The position numbers and the translations under genes are program-made. From sequence record NC_018835.1: a DNA stretch of 64,000 bases, one strand, 5' to 3'. The notes beneath the pieces are model-generated. The model worked only from the letters and a program-made list of their open reading frames with translations, made no database searches and was not told the origin of the DNA. Of the stretch, positions 1,990 to 55,924 are shown in pieces; position 1 is the first letter of the stretch; every line of letters starts with the position of its first letter. This stretch comes from Escherichia phage NJ01.

Positions 1990-1995
1990 AACTAA

Positions 1996-2024
1996 AGCTG
2001 CCTTCGGGTGGCTTTTCTTGTTTT
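1996..2024 (+). terminator. intrinsic terminator-like hairpin (UUCG loop) plus T-run
   Basis: agctgcc-ttcg-ggtggct stem-loop followed by ttttcttgtttt. Confidence 0.55.
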
Positions 2025-5449: not shown

Positions 5450-7627
5450 ATGTCTAGAGAATTAATGCCCAAATCTGGTATAATGATGCCTCATGTAGTA
5501 GTAACCAGAGATGCGGCTGTTGTTGGTGTTTCTACGGTAGATGGTCAGGCAGGAGCTGTGAATCTGACTGATAAATATTTACAGAAAACTGACGCAGCTG
5601 CTACATACCAGACTAAAGTGGAAGGAGCATCTAAAGATTTTGTACTGGATTCGATTCAACCTATTATGTCTGGTGCTTTATTCAGAGCAGACCCTTGGGT
5701 TGTTAACGACACCCCTCTCCGTTCTACCGGAGCTAACGGTGTAGAGTCAGTGGATATGATGAAGGTTACTCCTGATAACTCAATTAAGATTGGCAGTTAT
5801 GCTTCTTCTGTTCAAGGAGTAGAGATTCATTCTGCTGGTCGTCTTCAAGTAGTAGACCAGAACGACTCTGGTGTAGAAACTAAATATCCAGTATATTCTA
5901 AACGCTATCGTCCTGAGATTGAGGATCTGCCTTTCGCTGCAATTGGTTCTTATGTCAAAGATTCAAAGGGCCGTACTATTGGTGTAAACCGTACCGGTAT
6001 CAACTCTGATATCAAACAACTCACCCAAAAGGTCACTTTTACCCAACCTGTTACTGTAGCAGATGCTGTAGGCGATTATGATGCAGTGACACTGAGACAG
6101 CTTCGTAATAGTGGTGGTGGTTCTGGTGGTCCTACTATGAGTGGTATCTCCAACTTTGGTATTGGTGATTTCCATCTTCGTGATAGTCGTGCTTTCATCC
6201 CTGCATTCGAAGTTGTATCAGATGGTCAGCTACTGAATCGTGCTGATTACCCTGATCTTTGGGCTTATGCCCAGTTGTTAACCCCTATCACAGATGCTGC
6301 TTGGTTGGCTGATGCACAGCAACGAGGTAAATATTCAACTGGTGATGGTTCTACTACCTTCCGTGTTCCTGATAGGAATGGTGTTCAGAGTGGCTCTCTG
6401 AAAGAACTCTTTGCTCGTGGTGATGGTGGTAATAGTAGTAATAATGGAATGGCTTATGATGCGGCACTTCCTAACATCGTAGGTTACACTGCCCACACTC
6501 TTTTAACTGCTGCGAGTAATCAAGGACAGGTTGCTACCGATGGAGCTTTTACCTCTACAACCTCAACCTCAGGTGTTTGGCCTTTGTCTGGCGGTGGCGG
6601 TCTTTATACCAACATTCAGCTTAACGCTAACAACAGTGATGCTACTTATGGTCGCTACGGAATCACAGCGAATGCTATCCCTCGTAACTTCATTGGTGTT
6701 TGGACTATCCGTGCTCATGGTGGTTTTGTAGCAGCTAACACTTCTTGGTCTGTTATTAACAGTGATGCTTCAGAACAACCTTCAGGTACTCCTATTACTG
6801 GTGGATTGGTTTCTTCTAAGTATGTAGTTGGAGGTGTGGATAAGTATCGGTCTTCTATCCAGTTGATAGGGTCTAATGAAGTTGATTTATCAACTAGAAT
6901 TACGACTATAAATGATAGATATTCCATCGGGGCTGCAACTTGGGATTTTAAGTTAGATGGTAAACTTGTTTTTAATAAAAGTTTAAATCCTACCGGAACA
7001 GGATACTCCCCTGCTAACACCTACGTAACTCTTGCTAATACTTGGCTGACTTCTCCCTATAGTGGATACGTTGGTTTTGTTGGTGGCGGTGTTGGAGTTT
7101 CTAACGGAGGTTGGAGAAACTTCATCTCTTTAGGGTCTTTGATTTTCCCTGATTCAGCCCACCCTACTGCTATTATCTCTCAAGTGTATGATTACGATAT
7201 GGCGACCGGGAACCAGCCTAATGGGGACATTGTTCGGAATACATCGTTCAATGCTGAGAGCTATGATATCACTTTCGGGAACAACAGTGGGACTACTAAT
7301 TACATCTTCAGTAAATCTCCAGTCTCTGACGAGCGTCTAAAACATAGCATCAAAGAGGAGGGGACAGCCACAGCTCTTTCTAACCTAAACAAGATGGAGT
7401 ATAAAACCTTTATCTATAATTATGATGAGAAAGCAACTGTAAGGCGTGGATTTATTGCCCAGCAACTTGAAGCTATTGACCCTCAATATGTTAGGAAGTA
7501 TAAAACCTTCAAAGGTACTGATACTCTAGCTTTAGATGAGAATGTGTTGCTTTTAGATGCAATTGCTGCTATCCAAGAGCTTTCTAAAAAGGTTGAGGCT
7601 TTAGAAGCAAAACTAGCAGAGAAGTAA
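5450..7627 (+). CDS. tail fiber/tailspike with C-terminal intramolecular chaperone (peptidase S74-like) domain
   Basis: 725 aa; C-terminus SDERLKHSIKEE...IAQQLEAIDPQYV resembles self-cleaving chaperone domains of phage fibers. Confidence 0.7.
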   Translation: MSRELMPKSGIMMPHVVVTRDAAVVGVSTVDGQAGAVNLTDKYLQKTDAAATYQTKVEGASKDFVLDSIQPIMSGALFRADPWVVNDTPLRSTGANGVESVDMMKVTPDNSIKIGSYASSVQGVEIHSAGRLQVVDQNDSGVETKYPVYSKRYRPEIEDLPFAAIGSYVKDSKGRTIGVNRTGINSDIKQLTQKVTFTQPVTVADAVGDYDAVTLRQLRNSGGGSGGPTMSGISNFGIGDFHLRDSRAFIPAFEVVSDGQLLNRADYPDLWAYAQLLTPITDAAWLADAQQRGKYSTGDGSTTFRVPDRNGVQSGSLKELFARGDGGNSSNNGMAYDAALPNIVGYTAHTLLTAASNQGQVATDGAFTSTTSTSGVWPLSGGGGLYTNIQLNANNSDATYGRYGITANAIPRNFIGVWTIRAHGGFVAANTSWSVINSDASEQPSGTPITGGLVSSKYVVGGVDKYRSSIQLIGSNEVDLSTRITTINDRYSIGAATWDFKLDGKLVFNKSLNPTGTGYSPANTYVTLANTWLTSPYSGYVGFVGGGVGVSNGGWRNFISLGSLIFPDSAHPTAIISQVYDYDMATGNQPNGDIVRNTSFNAESYDITFGNNSGTTNYIFSKSPVSDERLKHSIKEEGTATALSNLNKMEYKTFIYNYDEKATVRRGFIAQQLEAIDPQYVRKYKTFKGTDTLALDENVLLLDAIAAIQELSKKVEALEAKLAEK

Positions 7628-12301: not shown

Positions 12302-12307
12302 CAACAA

Positions 12308-12334
12308 GGGGCTTCGTGCCCCTTTTATTGTTTT
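12308..12334 (+). terminator. intrinsic terminator
   Basis: ggggc-ttcgt-gcccc hairpin followed by ttttattgtttt. Confidence 0.6.
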
Positions 12335-12344
12335 GGAGGAACTT

Positions 12345-13313
12345 ATGGGTGCAGGTGGTTTTCGTAAGAACACTGGTCGTAATAACACCACACTCCCGTA
12401 CAACGTTGGGTTTCTCAATAATGTACAGGACACAGAAACATATAACGTAGCCGTATATGACGAGCTACAGAAAGTCAGTACAGCTACTAACCAAATGTTC
12501 CAAGCTATTGATGAGATTCACGATGAGATTGATGTTCGTATCAAAGCTCTTCATGCGATGAATCTACAATTTGATGAGCTTGAGAACAGAATTACCACAG
12601 AGATTGAAACAGCTATCGCAGATATTATAACACAGATGGGGAATCTCTCCACTGAAGATATTTGGGATAATTCTGTTCAACCTCCTGTAAAATTAGAAAG
12701 CACTGTATCTGGCTTTAAGACAAGTATTGAAGGTAACACAACTAAGATTCAAACGGTAGAAGGGATTGTTAACGACCAAGGTCAAGAGATTGCTTTAGTT
12801 CAGACAGAGATTCAAAATATCAATGGAAGCCTCTCTCAGTATATGAAGCTTTCTGAGTATGAAGCTACTTGGGGTGTTAACTCTACGGTCAACGGAAGAT
12901 ACGCTGGGGTCAAGTTAACTAACAACGGAACAAACAGTCAATTCCAAGTAACAGCTAACAAGTTTATTGTTGGTGATGGCAGCTCTGGTAATACCCCTTT
13001 TGTATTTGAAGGCGGAAGAGCTAGGATGGAATTCGCTGACATAAAGAACGTCAACATCACAACAGCTCAGATTGCCAACGCTAGAATTCAATGGGCACAG
13101 ATTGATAACGTATCTATCTCCAATGCTCAAATTCAGAACTTATCAGCGGATAAAATCACTGCTGGTTCTATGTGGGGTTCTAACTGGAGACTTACTGTTG
13201 GGGGTGACTTTGTTATGGGTGGCACAGGTGGTTCTCAGTTGTGGATGAATGGTAATAGAATAGATTTTTATGATGGGAGTGGAACTCTTCGCATAAGAAT
13301 AGGGAGTTGGTAA
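12345..13313 (+). CDS. virion structural protein (coiled-coil N-terminal region), function unknown
   Basis: ATG 12345 with GGAGG SD preferred over overlapping TTG 12279; 322 aa. Confidence 0.55.
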   Translation: MGAGGFRKNTGRNNTTLPYNVGFLNNVQDTETYNVAVYDELQKVSTATNQMFQAIDEIHDEIDVRIKALHAMNLQFDELENRITTEIETAIADIITQMGNLSTEDIWDNSVQPPVKLESTVSGFKTSIEGNTTKIQTVEGIVNDQGQEIALVQTEIQNINGSLSQYMKLSEYEATWGVNSTVNGRYAGVKLTNNGTNSQFQVTANKFIVGDGSSGNTPFVFEGGRARMEFADIKNVNITTAQIANARIQWAQIDNVSISNAQIQNLSADKITAGSMWGSNWRLTVGGDFVMGGTGGSQLWMNGNRIDFYDGSGTLRIRIGSW

Positions 13314-18857: not shown

Positions 18858-18878
18858 TACCTAAGTCCTGCCTTCTAT

Positions 18879-18889
18879 AATGTATATAG
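18879..18889 (+). promoter_or_regulatory. TAATGTATATA motif, candidate phage middle/late promoter element
   Basis: 35 nt upstream of ATG 18924; same motif as 2047..2056. Confidence 0.4.
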
Positions 18890-18923
18890 GGGGTAGGACA
18901 TTTTATTTATAAAAGGAGACGTT

Positions 18924-27248: not shown

Positions 27249-27492
27249 AATGCATCTCTTTATAAATGGTTTCCGTGTTCTTCTTCCAGCTAGATAAACC
27301 GGTAAGAACTCTCTGAGCAACTTCATCAGCTGCCTTACTTCTTTCAATCTCTAACTCTTGTTGATGTTTCTCTTTGTCTAGATTACTGCTGTCTGTTTGA
27401 TATTCGTTAAACTTCATACCACCAAAGAATACAAGAGCTGAGAAAACGATAAACCCTAAGTTATCACTTAACGTGTTTTGCATGTTGTCTCC

Positions 27493-27519
27493 AACGAAAA
27501 AAGCCACCCGAAGGTGGCT
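27493..27519 (-). terminator. intrinsic terminator (minus strand)
   Basis: agccacc-ttcg-ggtggct hairpin followed by TTTTT on minus strand, immediately upstream of spanin RBS. Confidence 0.55.
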
Positions 27520-28344: not shown

Positions 28345-28355
28345 AATATACATTA
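28345..28355 (-). promoter_or_regulatory. TAATGTATAT-like motif on minus strand upstream of SSB gene
   Basis: Reverse complement of + strand aatatacatta; ~55 nt upstream of SSB ATG. Confidence 0.35.
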
Positions 28356-30546: not shown

Positions 30547-30941
30547 CGAATCACCAGAGGCTCTTCAGAGTACACAGGAGCGGCTATTTCTACAGGAGGT
30601 GCTGCCCTAAGGTCATTAAGTCTTACACCCTTCAGCATCCCGTCTAGGTGATCTTTCTTAGGGATTCCAACAGGGAAGTCGTCAATCCAAATATCTACAA
30701 AGAAACCTAGCTGACGACATACATCATCCTTCTGAACACCATTGCAAAAGATGATAGGAATCTGCAAACACTCTGCATCAATCTTAATGTCGTGATTATC
30801 GTACCCATTAGGCTCTGCAAAGCGATAAGTTACAAAACGTACATCATAACCTTTGGCTTGCATTAATGCCACCACAGAGCGCCACAGCTTCTTATCTGAG
30901 GTGTAAGTATCATCGTAATCTAAACCAATATTCATATCCAA
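30543..30941 (-). CDS. HAD-superfamily phosphatase-like protein
   Basis: 132 aa; N-terminal IGLDYDDT matches DxDxT motif I. Confidence 0.5.
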   Translation of the reverse strand: MDMNIGLDYDDTYTSDKKLWRSVVALMQAKGYDVRFVTYRFAEPNGYDNHDIKIDAECLQIPIIFCNGVQKDDVCRQLGFFVDIWIDDFPVGIPKKDHLDGMLKGVRLNDLRAAPPVEIAAPVYSEEPLVIR

Positions 30942-30949
30942 ATCCTTTA

Positions 30950-30976
30950 GACAAGAAAAGCCGCCCTAAGGCAGCT
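30950..30976 (-). terminator. intrinsic terminator (minus strand)
   Basis: agctgcc-ttag-ggcggct hairpin followed by TTTCTTG on minus strand. Confidence 0.5.
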
Positions 30977-34695: not shown

Positions 34696-34763
34696 ATTTA
34701 TTACCTAAGAAGTTTAATTTGGTTTATATAAAAGAAAAGGCCACCCATTTGGGTAGCCTTATA

Positions 34764-35081: not shown

Positions 35082-35137
35082 TTAGAACTCCTTAATATAT
35101 CAGTATACACTAAGGAGTATACATTATAAGTTACTGT

Positions 35138-38832: not shown

Positions 38833-38893
38833 ATATCTATATCCTTATAAATAAGTTCGCCCCACCTCGGGTTAGGAGACAGGGCGGAGGTTT

Positions 38894-55077: not shown

Positions 55078-55230
55078 TTACTCCTGTTGTTTACACTCGT
55101 CAATAACCCACTGATAAGTGGATTGCCCAGAAAAGAAACACTGAATAAATCCAGATGTTCTCTGCGTTACCAGTGCTAGTGCACAAATCACTATCGCTGC
55201 TGCTAGCAGTTTTAAATCTAATTTAGACAT
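55078..55230 (-). CDS. small membrane protein
   Basis: 50 aa, below track cutoff; SD GAGAGG; TMD LLAAAIVICALALV; first gene after leader terminator. Confidence 0.4.
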   Translation of the reverse strand: MSKLDLKLLAAAIVICALALVTQRTSGFIQCFFSGQSTYQWVIDECKQQE

Positions 55231-55243
55231 ATTTCCTCTCATT

Positions 55244-55274
55244 GAATTTAAAAAAGGACTCTCCGAAAAGAGTC
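55244..55274 (-). terminator. intrinsic terminator/attenuator (minus strand) in leader of amidoligase operon
   Basis: gactct-tttcgg-agagtc hairpin followed by CTTTTTTAAATT on minus strand, ~15 nt before SD. Confidence 0.55.
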
Positions 55275-55456
55275 AAGCTTTAAATCCAAAAAGATATTAC
55301 CCAATATCTGTGGATAACCTGCTCTTAAAATATCTATCCGACGGATGTTTGAGGAGTATTCCTCGCCCTAGCATCGGCCCCATACGGGAAATATATTAAG
55401 ATTAGGTTAGTTGAGTCAGAATAACTCATATAGCCCTCCGAAGAAGGCTATAGATG

Positions 55457-55924
55457 TTACTCTATCTTAACTGAAGGGCAGTACTTCTCTTTCTTGCTGC
55501 GATACATCACAACAATCCAGTTCGAATCACGACGTTGCTTTTTAAGTCGTTTCTTTTCGGCACGAATTTCGTATGTGCTATCTCGGCGATCTAGGAATTT
55601 ATCCCGCGCCTTAGTTGAAAGCCACGTTGTACCAATTATGAAACCGACTAGGCTTCCAGCAGCACCTAAACCAACCATAGGAGCAGCAAACCAAGTCCAC
55701 CATACAAACGTACCTGCTGTATCATGTCCTAGCAGTGCACCACCAATAAGGCTTAACGCTACATATACCATAGCGGATAGCACTATTAATATAGCAAAGT
55801 TTTGCACTGTTCGCCAGAAGTATTCACAGAAGTTGGTCATGTTGTCCCAATGATAATTGGGTAGGCTTGACATGGCTTTGTTGAATTTGTGCAACCAGCC
55901 GTTCTTGTTAACCTTGATCATCAC
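55457..55924 (-). CDS. membrane protein with several predicted TMDs
   Basis: 155 aa; hydrophobic stretches ILIVLSAMVYVALSLIGGALLG and WFAAPMVGLGAAGSLVGFIIG. Confidence 0.45.
   Translation of the reverse strand: MMIKVNKNGWLHKFNKAMSSLPNYHWDNMTNFCEYFWRTVQNFAILIVLSAMVYVALSLIGGALLGHDTAGTFVWWTWFAAPMVGLGAAGSLVGFIIGTTWLSTKARDKFLDRRDSTYEIRAEKKRLKKQRRDSNWIVVMYRSKKEKYCPSVKIE

Follow-up and report, generated by a model that had tools for sequence, protein, structure and literature searches.

In Escherichia phage NJ01 (NC_018835.1), a minus-strand hairpin with a T-run lies directly ahead of the Shine-Dalgarno (SD) sequence of the gene that follows, at about 55 kb of the 64,000-nt stretch that we analyzed (the window). 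This raises the question of how genes behind such a hairpin are expressed and whether termination there is regulated. The DNA around this site (site A) shares 95% of its letters with Escherichia phage 172-1 and 90% with phiEco32, and the window therefore comes from a Kuravirus, a phiEco32-like podophage of the C3 morphotype; gene numbers were carried over from the phiEco32 record. We consider it probable, at roughly 0.6, that site A and three similar sites (B, C, and D) are functional Rho-independent terminators within long co-directional early and middle operons, where they act as partial stops that set gene dosage. Site A stands apart from the other three, its hairpin being the final helix of a conserved structured RNA family that has two copies and is not in Rfam.

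The hairpin and T-run predicted at 55244..55274 were borne out (coordinates of sites A to D all refer to the minus strand, which is the coding strand). Terminator A (55250..55274) has a 7-bp stem, GACTCTT-TTCG-GAGAGTC (55274..55257), with three GC pairs, followed by C and U6 (55256..55250), and a free energy (ΔG) of −7.9. From the last U, 9 nt lead to the SD GAGAGGA (55240..55234), and the ATG at 55230 starts the gene-90 homologue (50 amino acids; SD and start codon at 55228..55240), which heads the block of genes 90 to 84 that includes the amidoligase, as had also been predicted. The pairing of stem A is retained in 24 distinct sequences with both one-sided and double changes (A-U to G.U, and U.G to C-G to G-C). 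Homologues of terminator A are annotated as terminators in the GenBank records of phages 7-11 (HM997019, 70683..70707) and SU7 (MZ342906, 63691..63732), and predicted terminators in Kuravirus genomes have been published in the SU10 and SU7 papers (PMC4281155, PMC8399022).

Terminator B (27497..27519) is located between the gene-40 homologue and the Rz-like spanin gene. It consists of a 7-bp stem (AGCCACC-TTCG-GGTGGCT, 27519..27502) and a run of five to six uridines extending to 27497 (ΔG −12.7), with GGAG 4 nt past the run and the ATG at 27483. Its sequence is invariant in relatives, and in two distant relatives, whose gp40 homologues are 66 to 69% identical, a terminator with a different stem occupies the same place, directly after the gp40 homologue and a few nucleotides ahead of the next SD. 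Between the gene-48 and gene-47 homologues, terminator C (30950..30976) combines a stem of 7 to 10 bp (30976..30959) with the tail UUUUCUUGUCU, an interrupted U-run (ΔG −15.2 for the extended stem); an AAGGA SD follows 8 nt on, at 30947, and the ATG is at 30935. This stem shows a G-C to A-U compensatory change among relatives whose upstream genes are non-homologous. Terminator D (61184..61217) has an 11-bp stem (61217..61192) and the tail GUUGUUUU, again an interrupted U-run (ΔG −18), and is kept while both flanking genes differ among phages. Its spacing is looser than at the other sites, with 30 nt from the U-run to the SD and 45 nt to the ATG (61140). The layout that the original prediction saw repeated at 27493..27519, 30950..30976, and 61181..61225 thus held for B and C, while "immediately upstream" is too strict a description of D. 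All four hairpins are conserved in relatives, even beside non-homologous flanking genes.

The 43 nt between terminator D and the next start codon (conserved leader, 61141..61183, minus strand, beginning UAAUUAAGGGACAACUCUUACUUAAACUAACAAGAGG) are nearly invariant although the downstream genes are unrelated. Terminator and leader together (61141..61217, minus strand) form a near-invariant linker between unrelated genes of different phages, which looks like a recombination junction for gene shuffling. Comparable promoter/stem-loop modules occur in T4-like phages.

When folded in isolation, hairpins B, C, and D reached z scores of −3.8, −4.0, and −4.6, and hairpin A reached −1.7, with 12 of 200 shuffles folding as well. 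Across the window, 20 hairpins with ΔG of −10 or lower and a T-rich tail were found, compared to 4.8 ± 2.1 in 30 dinucleotide shuffles (about 4-fold), and a looser terminator scan of 46 to 64 kb gave 24 against 12 ± 3.9 expected. Two further minus-strand sites repeat the arrangement seen at the four sites and bear on the operon map below: a terminator at 34735..34762 after the gene-58 homologue, with a U-rich tail (ΔG −17.5, z −4.0), and a hairpin with a poor U-run at 38857..38887 after the gene-67 homologue (ΔG −15.5, z −2.3). The stems begin very close to the preceding stop codon, at 6 nt for C, 7 nt for D, 3 nt for the site at 34762, and 7 nt for the site at 38887.

The original prediction had described all four sites as attenuator-like. 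For B, C, and D this could not be upheld, as we found no leader open reading frame (ORF), no alternative antiterminator pairing, and no conserved upstream sensor, and saw no evidence that they are attenuators. Their closeness to the SD follows from spacers of 57 nt (B), 47 nt (C), and 84 nt (D) that hold hardly anything besides the terminator and the SD; a terminator that follows one gene in so compact a genome has to adjoin the SD of the next. Unlike a trp-type attenuator, B, C, and D have no leader at all. Only at site A is there an upstream conserved structured domain that could make termination regulated; this domain was absent from the original prediction and is new here.

We found no fitting or conserved promoter between any of hairpins A to D and the next SD, in line with the prediction that there is no room for one, and the downstream genes therefore need read-through by RNA polymerase, as predicted. 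The 43 nt after D match neither promoter consensus, despite their strong conservation, and the promoters predicted for phage 7-11 (PMC4331800, Table 2) include none of the sigma70 type close to the site A homologue. TTGACT at 55276..55271, overlapping the 5' arm of hairpin A, was rejected as a promoter: no acceptable −10 lies at 17 to 19 nt, the start site would land on the SD, and many relatives read TTGGCT, a change that merely converts an A-U pair of the hairpin to G.U.

The genome layout gives these terminators a context. The plus strand carries the late structural genes, which extend to about 23.3 kb, and from about 23.5 kb until the window ends, the middle and early genes lie on the minus strand. 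In phiEco32, the host sigma70 holoenzyme transcribes the early genes, using strong promoters close to the right end of the genome, and transcription of the middle and late genes falls to holoenzyme carrying the phage sigma factor gp36 (PMC4331800; PMC12276001; SU10 supplement). Promoters of gp36 consist of a single element, tAATGTAtA, upstream of genes 6, 13, 26, 40, 58, and 68 (PMC4331800). On the minus strand of the window, P40 (TAATGTATA, 28347..28355) drives gene 40 into terminator B, P58 (TAATGTATA, 35126..35118) drives gene 58 into the terminator at 34762, and P68 (AAATGTATA, 39827..39819) drives genes 68 and 67 into the hairpin at 38887. All three middle promoters thus head a unit that a hairpin closes after one or two genes, and everything beyond receives read-through transcripts only, including the spanin gene and the sigma-factor gene 36. 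The original prediction had offered regulated antitermination or dosage control; the promoter map fits dosage control, and regulated antitermination found no support as a general reading.

We therefore favor partial termination, with short promoter-gene-terminator cassettes nested inside a longer read-through operon, the downstream genes presumably being made by the fraction of polymerases that reads through. This map predicts that genes 40, 58, and 68/67 are expressed far above their neighbors and that polymerases must read through terminator B for the spanin gene and gene 36 to be expressed. Translation may add a further layer: as a stem that begins 3 to 7 nt past a stop codon would have its 5' arm within the footprint of the terminating ribosome, termination at C, D, and the sites at 34762 and 38887 may weaken on tightly coupled transcripts, and read-through would be favored on well-translated ones.

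The pattern is an ordinary one, since compact phage operons tune gene dosage in this way and related records already list homologous terminators. Intrinsic terminators that lie inside phage operons and stop only part of the polymerases are known as T7 TE and T-phi and lambda tR1. The sites described here resemble them in that a GC-rich hairpin with a U-run separates co-directional genes, the genes beyond it lack a promoter of their own and rely on read-through for expression, and a terminator behind a strongly transcribed gene reduces the dosage of the genes after it. They differ in that this phage group has no known N- or Q-type antiterminator and in that the switch is from sigma70 to the gp36 holoenzyme and not to a phage polymerase. 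On the late side, a terminator at 1993..2016 (plus strand) follows a 147-amino-acid gene and is itself followed by the P6 promoter (TAATGTATA at 2047), an arrangement with the same logic.

At site A, the spacer upstream of gene 90 is 226 nt long and contains element A (55244..55455, minus strand), a 212-nt structured RNA module that runs from the stop codon of the upstream gene to terminator A. This spacer is better conserved than its surroundings: its identity is 94.7% in EP335, compared to 73 to 92% for the genes on either side, and 84.8% in E20-1, where the neighboring genes are 67 to 74% identical or have no match. BLAST searches with the spacer returned 102 to 103 phage records with 70 to 99% identity, falling into a phiEco32-like and a 7-11-like group; Salmonella phages 7-11, SE131, pSal-SNUABM-01, and SeKF_80 carry the element at full length with about 70% identity. 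Starting from the 7-11 copy, BLAST found no homologues outside phages of E. coli, Shigella, and Salmonella. Protein-anchored searches of IMG/VR yielded 3 to 7 loci, and GenBank phage records were used instead.

We aligned 24 distinct sequences, derived a consensus fold with RNAalifold, and built a covariance model from the alignment, in which element A of the window scored 250.8 bits. The consensus fold contains 52 bp in ten helices, with 99.7% of cells paired across the 24 sequences. Compensatory changes on both sides occurred in 12 pairs, compared to 0 to 3 when the partners were slid by 1 to 3 columns, and the covariation score was 0.203 against 0.013 to 0.057 in these slid controls. The window sequence itself folded with a z score of −5.6. 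About 10% of the paired cells are G.U, which on the other strand would be A.C mismatches, indicating that the structure belongs to the minus-strand RNA. At the gathering threshold, Rfam recognized a tRNA-Arg only, and it gave no credible match for 55150..55520 at E ≤ 10.

From 5' to 3', the fold starts with helix H1 (55430..55451, minus strand; ATAGCCTT/GAGGGCTAT), a hairpin directly after the stop codon that has no U-run and whose pairing is preserved by U-A to A-U and U.G to C-G changes. A small second hairpin (H2), a domain closed by UAACCU and AGGUUA, a variable hairpin that is missing from 7-11, and terminator A follow; the latter is flanked by complementary A- and U-rich runs. As both strands of the long-range closing helix are invariant (UAACCU at 55404..55409, minus strand, pairing with AGGUUA at 55320..55315), this helix is predicted without proof from covariation. 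The core of the element (55338..55388, minus strand) comprises the hairpin CCC-GUAU-GGG, the helix CCGAUG/CGUCGG, an internal loop of the form CUAGGG(C/A) // (A/G)AACAUC, and a hairpin in which GAGGA and UCCUC enclose a loop. Between the E. coli and Salmonella phage clades, it shows compensatory changes of C-G to G-C, C-G to U-A, A-U to G-C, and G-C to C-G. Furthermore, the two nucleotides flanking the GAGG hairpin, at 55365 and 55350, covary perfectly in a non-Watson-Crick manner, being C..A in 8 sequences and A..G in 16, with both states present in both clades; this pattern in the alignment is indicative of a specific non-canonical pair. Interpretations of the internal loop as a kink-turn, a sarcin-ricin motif, or a 5S loop E were set aside, since the resemblance, judged by eye, was partial only.

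Two other readings of the element were discarded. A sigma70-like CTGACT-18-TATATT (55419..55390), considered as a promoter belonging to the element itself, falls within covarying helices and has been lost from the E20-1 and Salmonella clades, and no promoter is predicted there in 7-11. Without a conserved promoter of its own, the RNA is part of the early polycistronic transcript. The sole ORF, of 31 codons from 55429, considered as a leader peptide, is lost in relatives, where the ATG is followed by TGA; the indels in the alignment are not multiples of three.

A loose pattern scan of 596 Gb of genomes gave 72 matches, of which a single one fits the covariance model, the rest being chance matches. 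This one is an 8.2-kb contig (CALKAR010000070.1), binned as an uncultured Peptococcaceae, in which a full-length element A scores 255 bits; almost certainly, the contig comes from a Kuravirus-like phage and was mis-binned into a metagenome-assembled genome of a Firmicute.

The upstream neighbor of element A, the gene-92 homologue, is constant across clades. The downstream gene varies: it is gene 90 with the amidoligase block in Kuravirus and an endolysin-like gene in 7-11, SE131, pSal-SNUABM-01, and SeKF_80. The gene-92 homologue (55457..55921, minus strand) encodes a membrane protein (phrog_944) and is only about 71% identical to phiEco32 at the DNA level, with the adjoining spacer about 97% identical. 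Neither the window nor phage 172-1 has phiEco32 gene 91 (55457..55921, minus strand, in the window versus 62075..62754 in phiEco32). PHROGs and Pfam, applied to ten flanking proteins, gave names for the spanin and for "membrane protein" only.

A diverged second copy of the 5' two-thirds of the element, comprising H1, H2, and the core, was detected by the covariance model at 61926..62069 (minus strand; 50.1 bits, E about 3e-10), 6.6 kb upstream of element A in the direction of transcription. It was also found in the loci of eight relatives at 45 to 63 bits, and its stems differ from those of the first copy in a compensatory manner (CACCG/CGGUG; GGC-AUAU-GCC). Copy 2 lies in a structured spacer of 387 nt (61688..62074, minus strand) between the gene-113 and gene-112 homologues, for which RNAalifold predicted 80 pairs from 9 sequences, 14 of them compensatory, and for which Rfam gave no credible match at E ≤ 5 (searched as 61650..62110). 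The spacer ends in the hairpin GATGACTCT/AGAGTCATC (61847..61824), which has a GACTCT/AGAGTC stem, as in terminator A, and no U-run. The model found no further copy elsewhere in the window or at the phiEco32 right end (70 to 77.5 kb). Two CUAGGGG(U)A repeats are also present in the 387-nt spacer, and its terminal hairpin carries an insertion of about 60 nt in phiEco32, EP335, PGN6866, and Bas89. A tRNA-Arg gene (anticodon TCT; 59231..59305, minus strand) lies in the early region between the two copies and is kept in relatives.

How, then, might element A act? Our first choice, held with low confidence, is that it influences termination or read-through in cis, and we regard release as a stable RNA as about equally likely. 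In the cis reading, the folded domain would act on the nascent early transcript and might fix or adjust the number of polymerases that are halted by terminator A, and hence of those that enter genes 90 to 84. The broader proposal that both copies represent a cis-acting class of phage RNA, either a riboswitch-like sensor or a put-like modifier of polymerase, that controls read-through of early-operon terminators is a tentative one.

Several points weigh against partial termination at the four sites and against a cis role of element A. Hairpin A is weak on its own and not beyond chance, so that the case for it is built on its conservation and covariation. Interrupted U-runs are present at C, D, and the site at 38887; weaker termination is therefore expected at C and D, and some of the three hairpins may mainly stabilize RNA. 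For this phage group, the literature covered, which did not extend to the primary phiEco32 papers, contained no transcript 3' ends, termination efficiencies, or start sites. The compensatory changes in element A mostly split just two clades and thus reflect few independent events, and the gene downstream of the element differs between these clades. In copy 2, the hairpin without a U-run indicates that the folded domain is not obligatorily tied to termination. Lastly, inspection of the alignment revealed no conserved, mutually exclusive antiterminator helix for element A, only complementarities of 4 to 6 nt (AAGAGC with GCUCUU) that are not kept in the Salmonella clade.

The alternatives have to be judged against the same observations. 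If the domain were a riboswitch-like or protein-binding leader, it would sense a signal and decide whether terminator A forms, and copy 2 would use another platform, such as masking of the gene-112 SD. The layout of site A, alone among the four, is indeed the canonical one of riboswitch and attenuator leaders, with a covarying multi-helix domain that has conserved unpaired nucleotides followed by an intrinsic terminator, an SD, and an ORF, and for copy 2 RNAalifold predicts that UCCUC in the 5' module binds the AGAGAGA SD region of the gene that follows. However, this pairing is invariant and hence unproven, copy 2 has no terminator, and element A differs from such leaders in having no Rfam riboswitch match, no antiterminator helix that inspection showed to be conserved, and no conserved leader peptide. 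It also sits in mid-operon and not behind a promoter, and its downstream genes are unrelated between clades and not functionally coherent (copy 2 precedes gene 112), which makes a pathway-specific ligand less plausible; we hold regulated termination to be possible but uncertain. HK022 putL and putR are nascent RNAs that bind the transcribing polymerase in cis and, with no help from protein factors, render it resistant to downstream terminators. The two copies are likewise paralogous structured RNAs of early transcripts, each ahead of a U-run terminator (A lies about 50 nt beyond copy 1, and D about 600 nt beyond copy 2), and early transcription has to cross more than 20 kb with several terminators. 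Yet the covariance model, run against HK022 24 to 32 kb, where the put sites were assumed to lie, gave only generic hairpins (at most 8.8 bits), and element A is much larger and more branched than the two-hairpin put RNA, which makes a put-like function improbable.

Alternatively, the terminator may exist to make an RNA and not to control gene 90. Element A would then be the 3' untranslated region (UTR) of the upstream gene (92 or 91), released as a small RNA that acts in trans, with its 3' end formed by terminator A. Hfq-dependent small RNAs from 3' UTRs typically end in an A/U-rich stretch, a hairpin, and a U-run, and CpxQ and SroC are bacterial examples that derive from 3' UTRs and end in terminators. 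Element A resembles them, as it begins at a stop codon with a protective hairpin and ends in an A/U-rich stretch, a hairpin, and U6. Its upstream neighborhood is kept across clades while the downstream gene changes, and the complex conserved fold with its precise non-canonical covariation suggests a specific binding partner. The same fold, a complex junction with conserved unpaired nucleotides, also sets it apart from the simple seed plus terminator of CpxQ and SroC, and neither a conserved promoter of its own nor, in copy 2, a terminator supports this reading, which we see as a possible but uncertain candidate. RNase III sites lie between T7 early genes, and the hairpins could in the same way be mainly processing or stability elements, either nuclease sites or 3'-protective structures. 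Helix H1, the hairpin at 38887, and the GACTCT hairpin of copy 2 have no good U-run, and the stem/internal-loop/stem core is repeated in two early spacers. On the other hand, A and B carry an uninterrupted U5 to U6 directly 3' of the stem, C, D, and the site at 34762 have U-rich tails, and the core helices of 6 and 5 bp are short for RNase III; this account is not a likely one. Finally, element A could act as DNA, since TTATCCACA at 55309..55317 (minus strand) is a consensus DnaA box, invariant in all 24 sequences and set in AT-rich surroundings, and might be a component of an origin or a DnaA roadblock to transcription. Three perfect copies are present in the window (about 0.5 expected by chance, by our own estimate), of which this is the sole intergenic one; the two others, at 6835 (minus) and 16154 (plus), lie in coding DNA. 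There is no cluster of boxes in the spacer, no change of GC skew at 55 kb, and no box in copy 2, and the 12 compensatory pairs and many G.U pairs point to the RNA of one strand, so that a purely DNA-level role is very unlikely.

Whichever function applies, element A is a previously undescribed structured RNA with good support. Each genome has two copies of it, and it occurs in about 100 sequenced phages from two groups, several of these phages being under study for therapy. The 7-11 and SU7 annotations and the SU10 and SU7 papers mark the hairpin only, and the upstream domain and copy 2 are unmentioned in the literature examined. To our knowledge, the protein regulators gp36 and gp79 are the only regulators studied so far in the phiEco32 model system. 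If the RNA binds a host or phage factor or controls termination, it would offer a tractable entry to early-gene regulation in this system. If it does represent a new cis-acting class, control of read-through in C3-morphotype podophages (Gordonclarkvirinae and the 7-11 group) would time entry into the amidoligase or lysis-related genes.

Other structured sites were observed in the window. A further early spacer of 291 nt (57449..57739, minus strand) is 96.6% identical in EP335, folds with a z score of about −4, and contains a G/C-rich hairpin, GGGAGG...CCCTCCC, at 57508..57531 that was flagged on both strands. A hairpin that looks bidirectional (12304..12326, both strands) lies 18 nt ahead of the gene start at 12345. 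The terminator scan also flagged an inverted repeat of 13 to 15 bp (18865..18899, plus strand; ΔG −16.7) directly upstream of the gene for a 1473-amino-acid protein, which holds the P26 late-promoter element TAATGTATA in its loop and upper stem; the P26 sequence is listed as a late promoter in the SU10 supplement.

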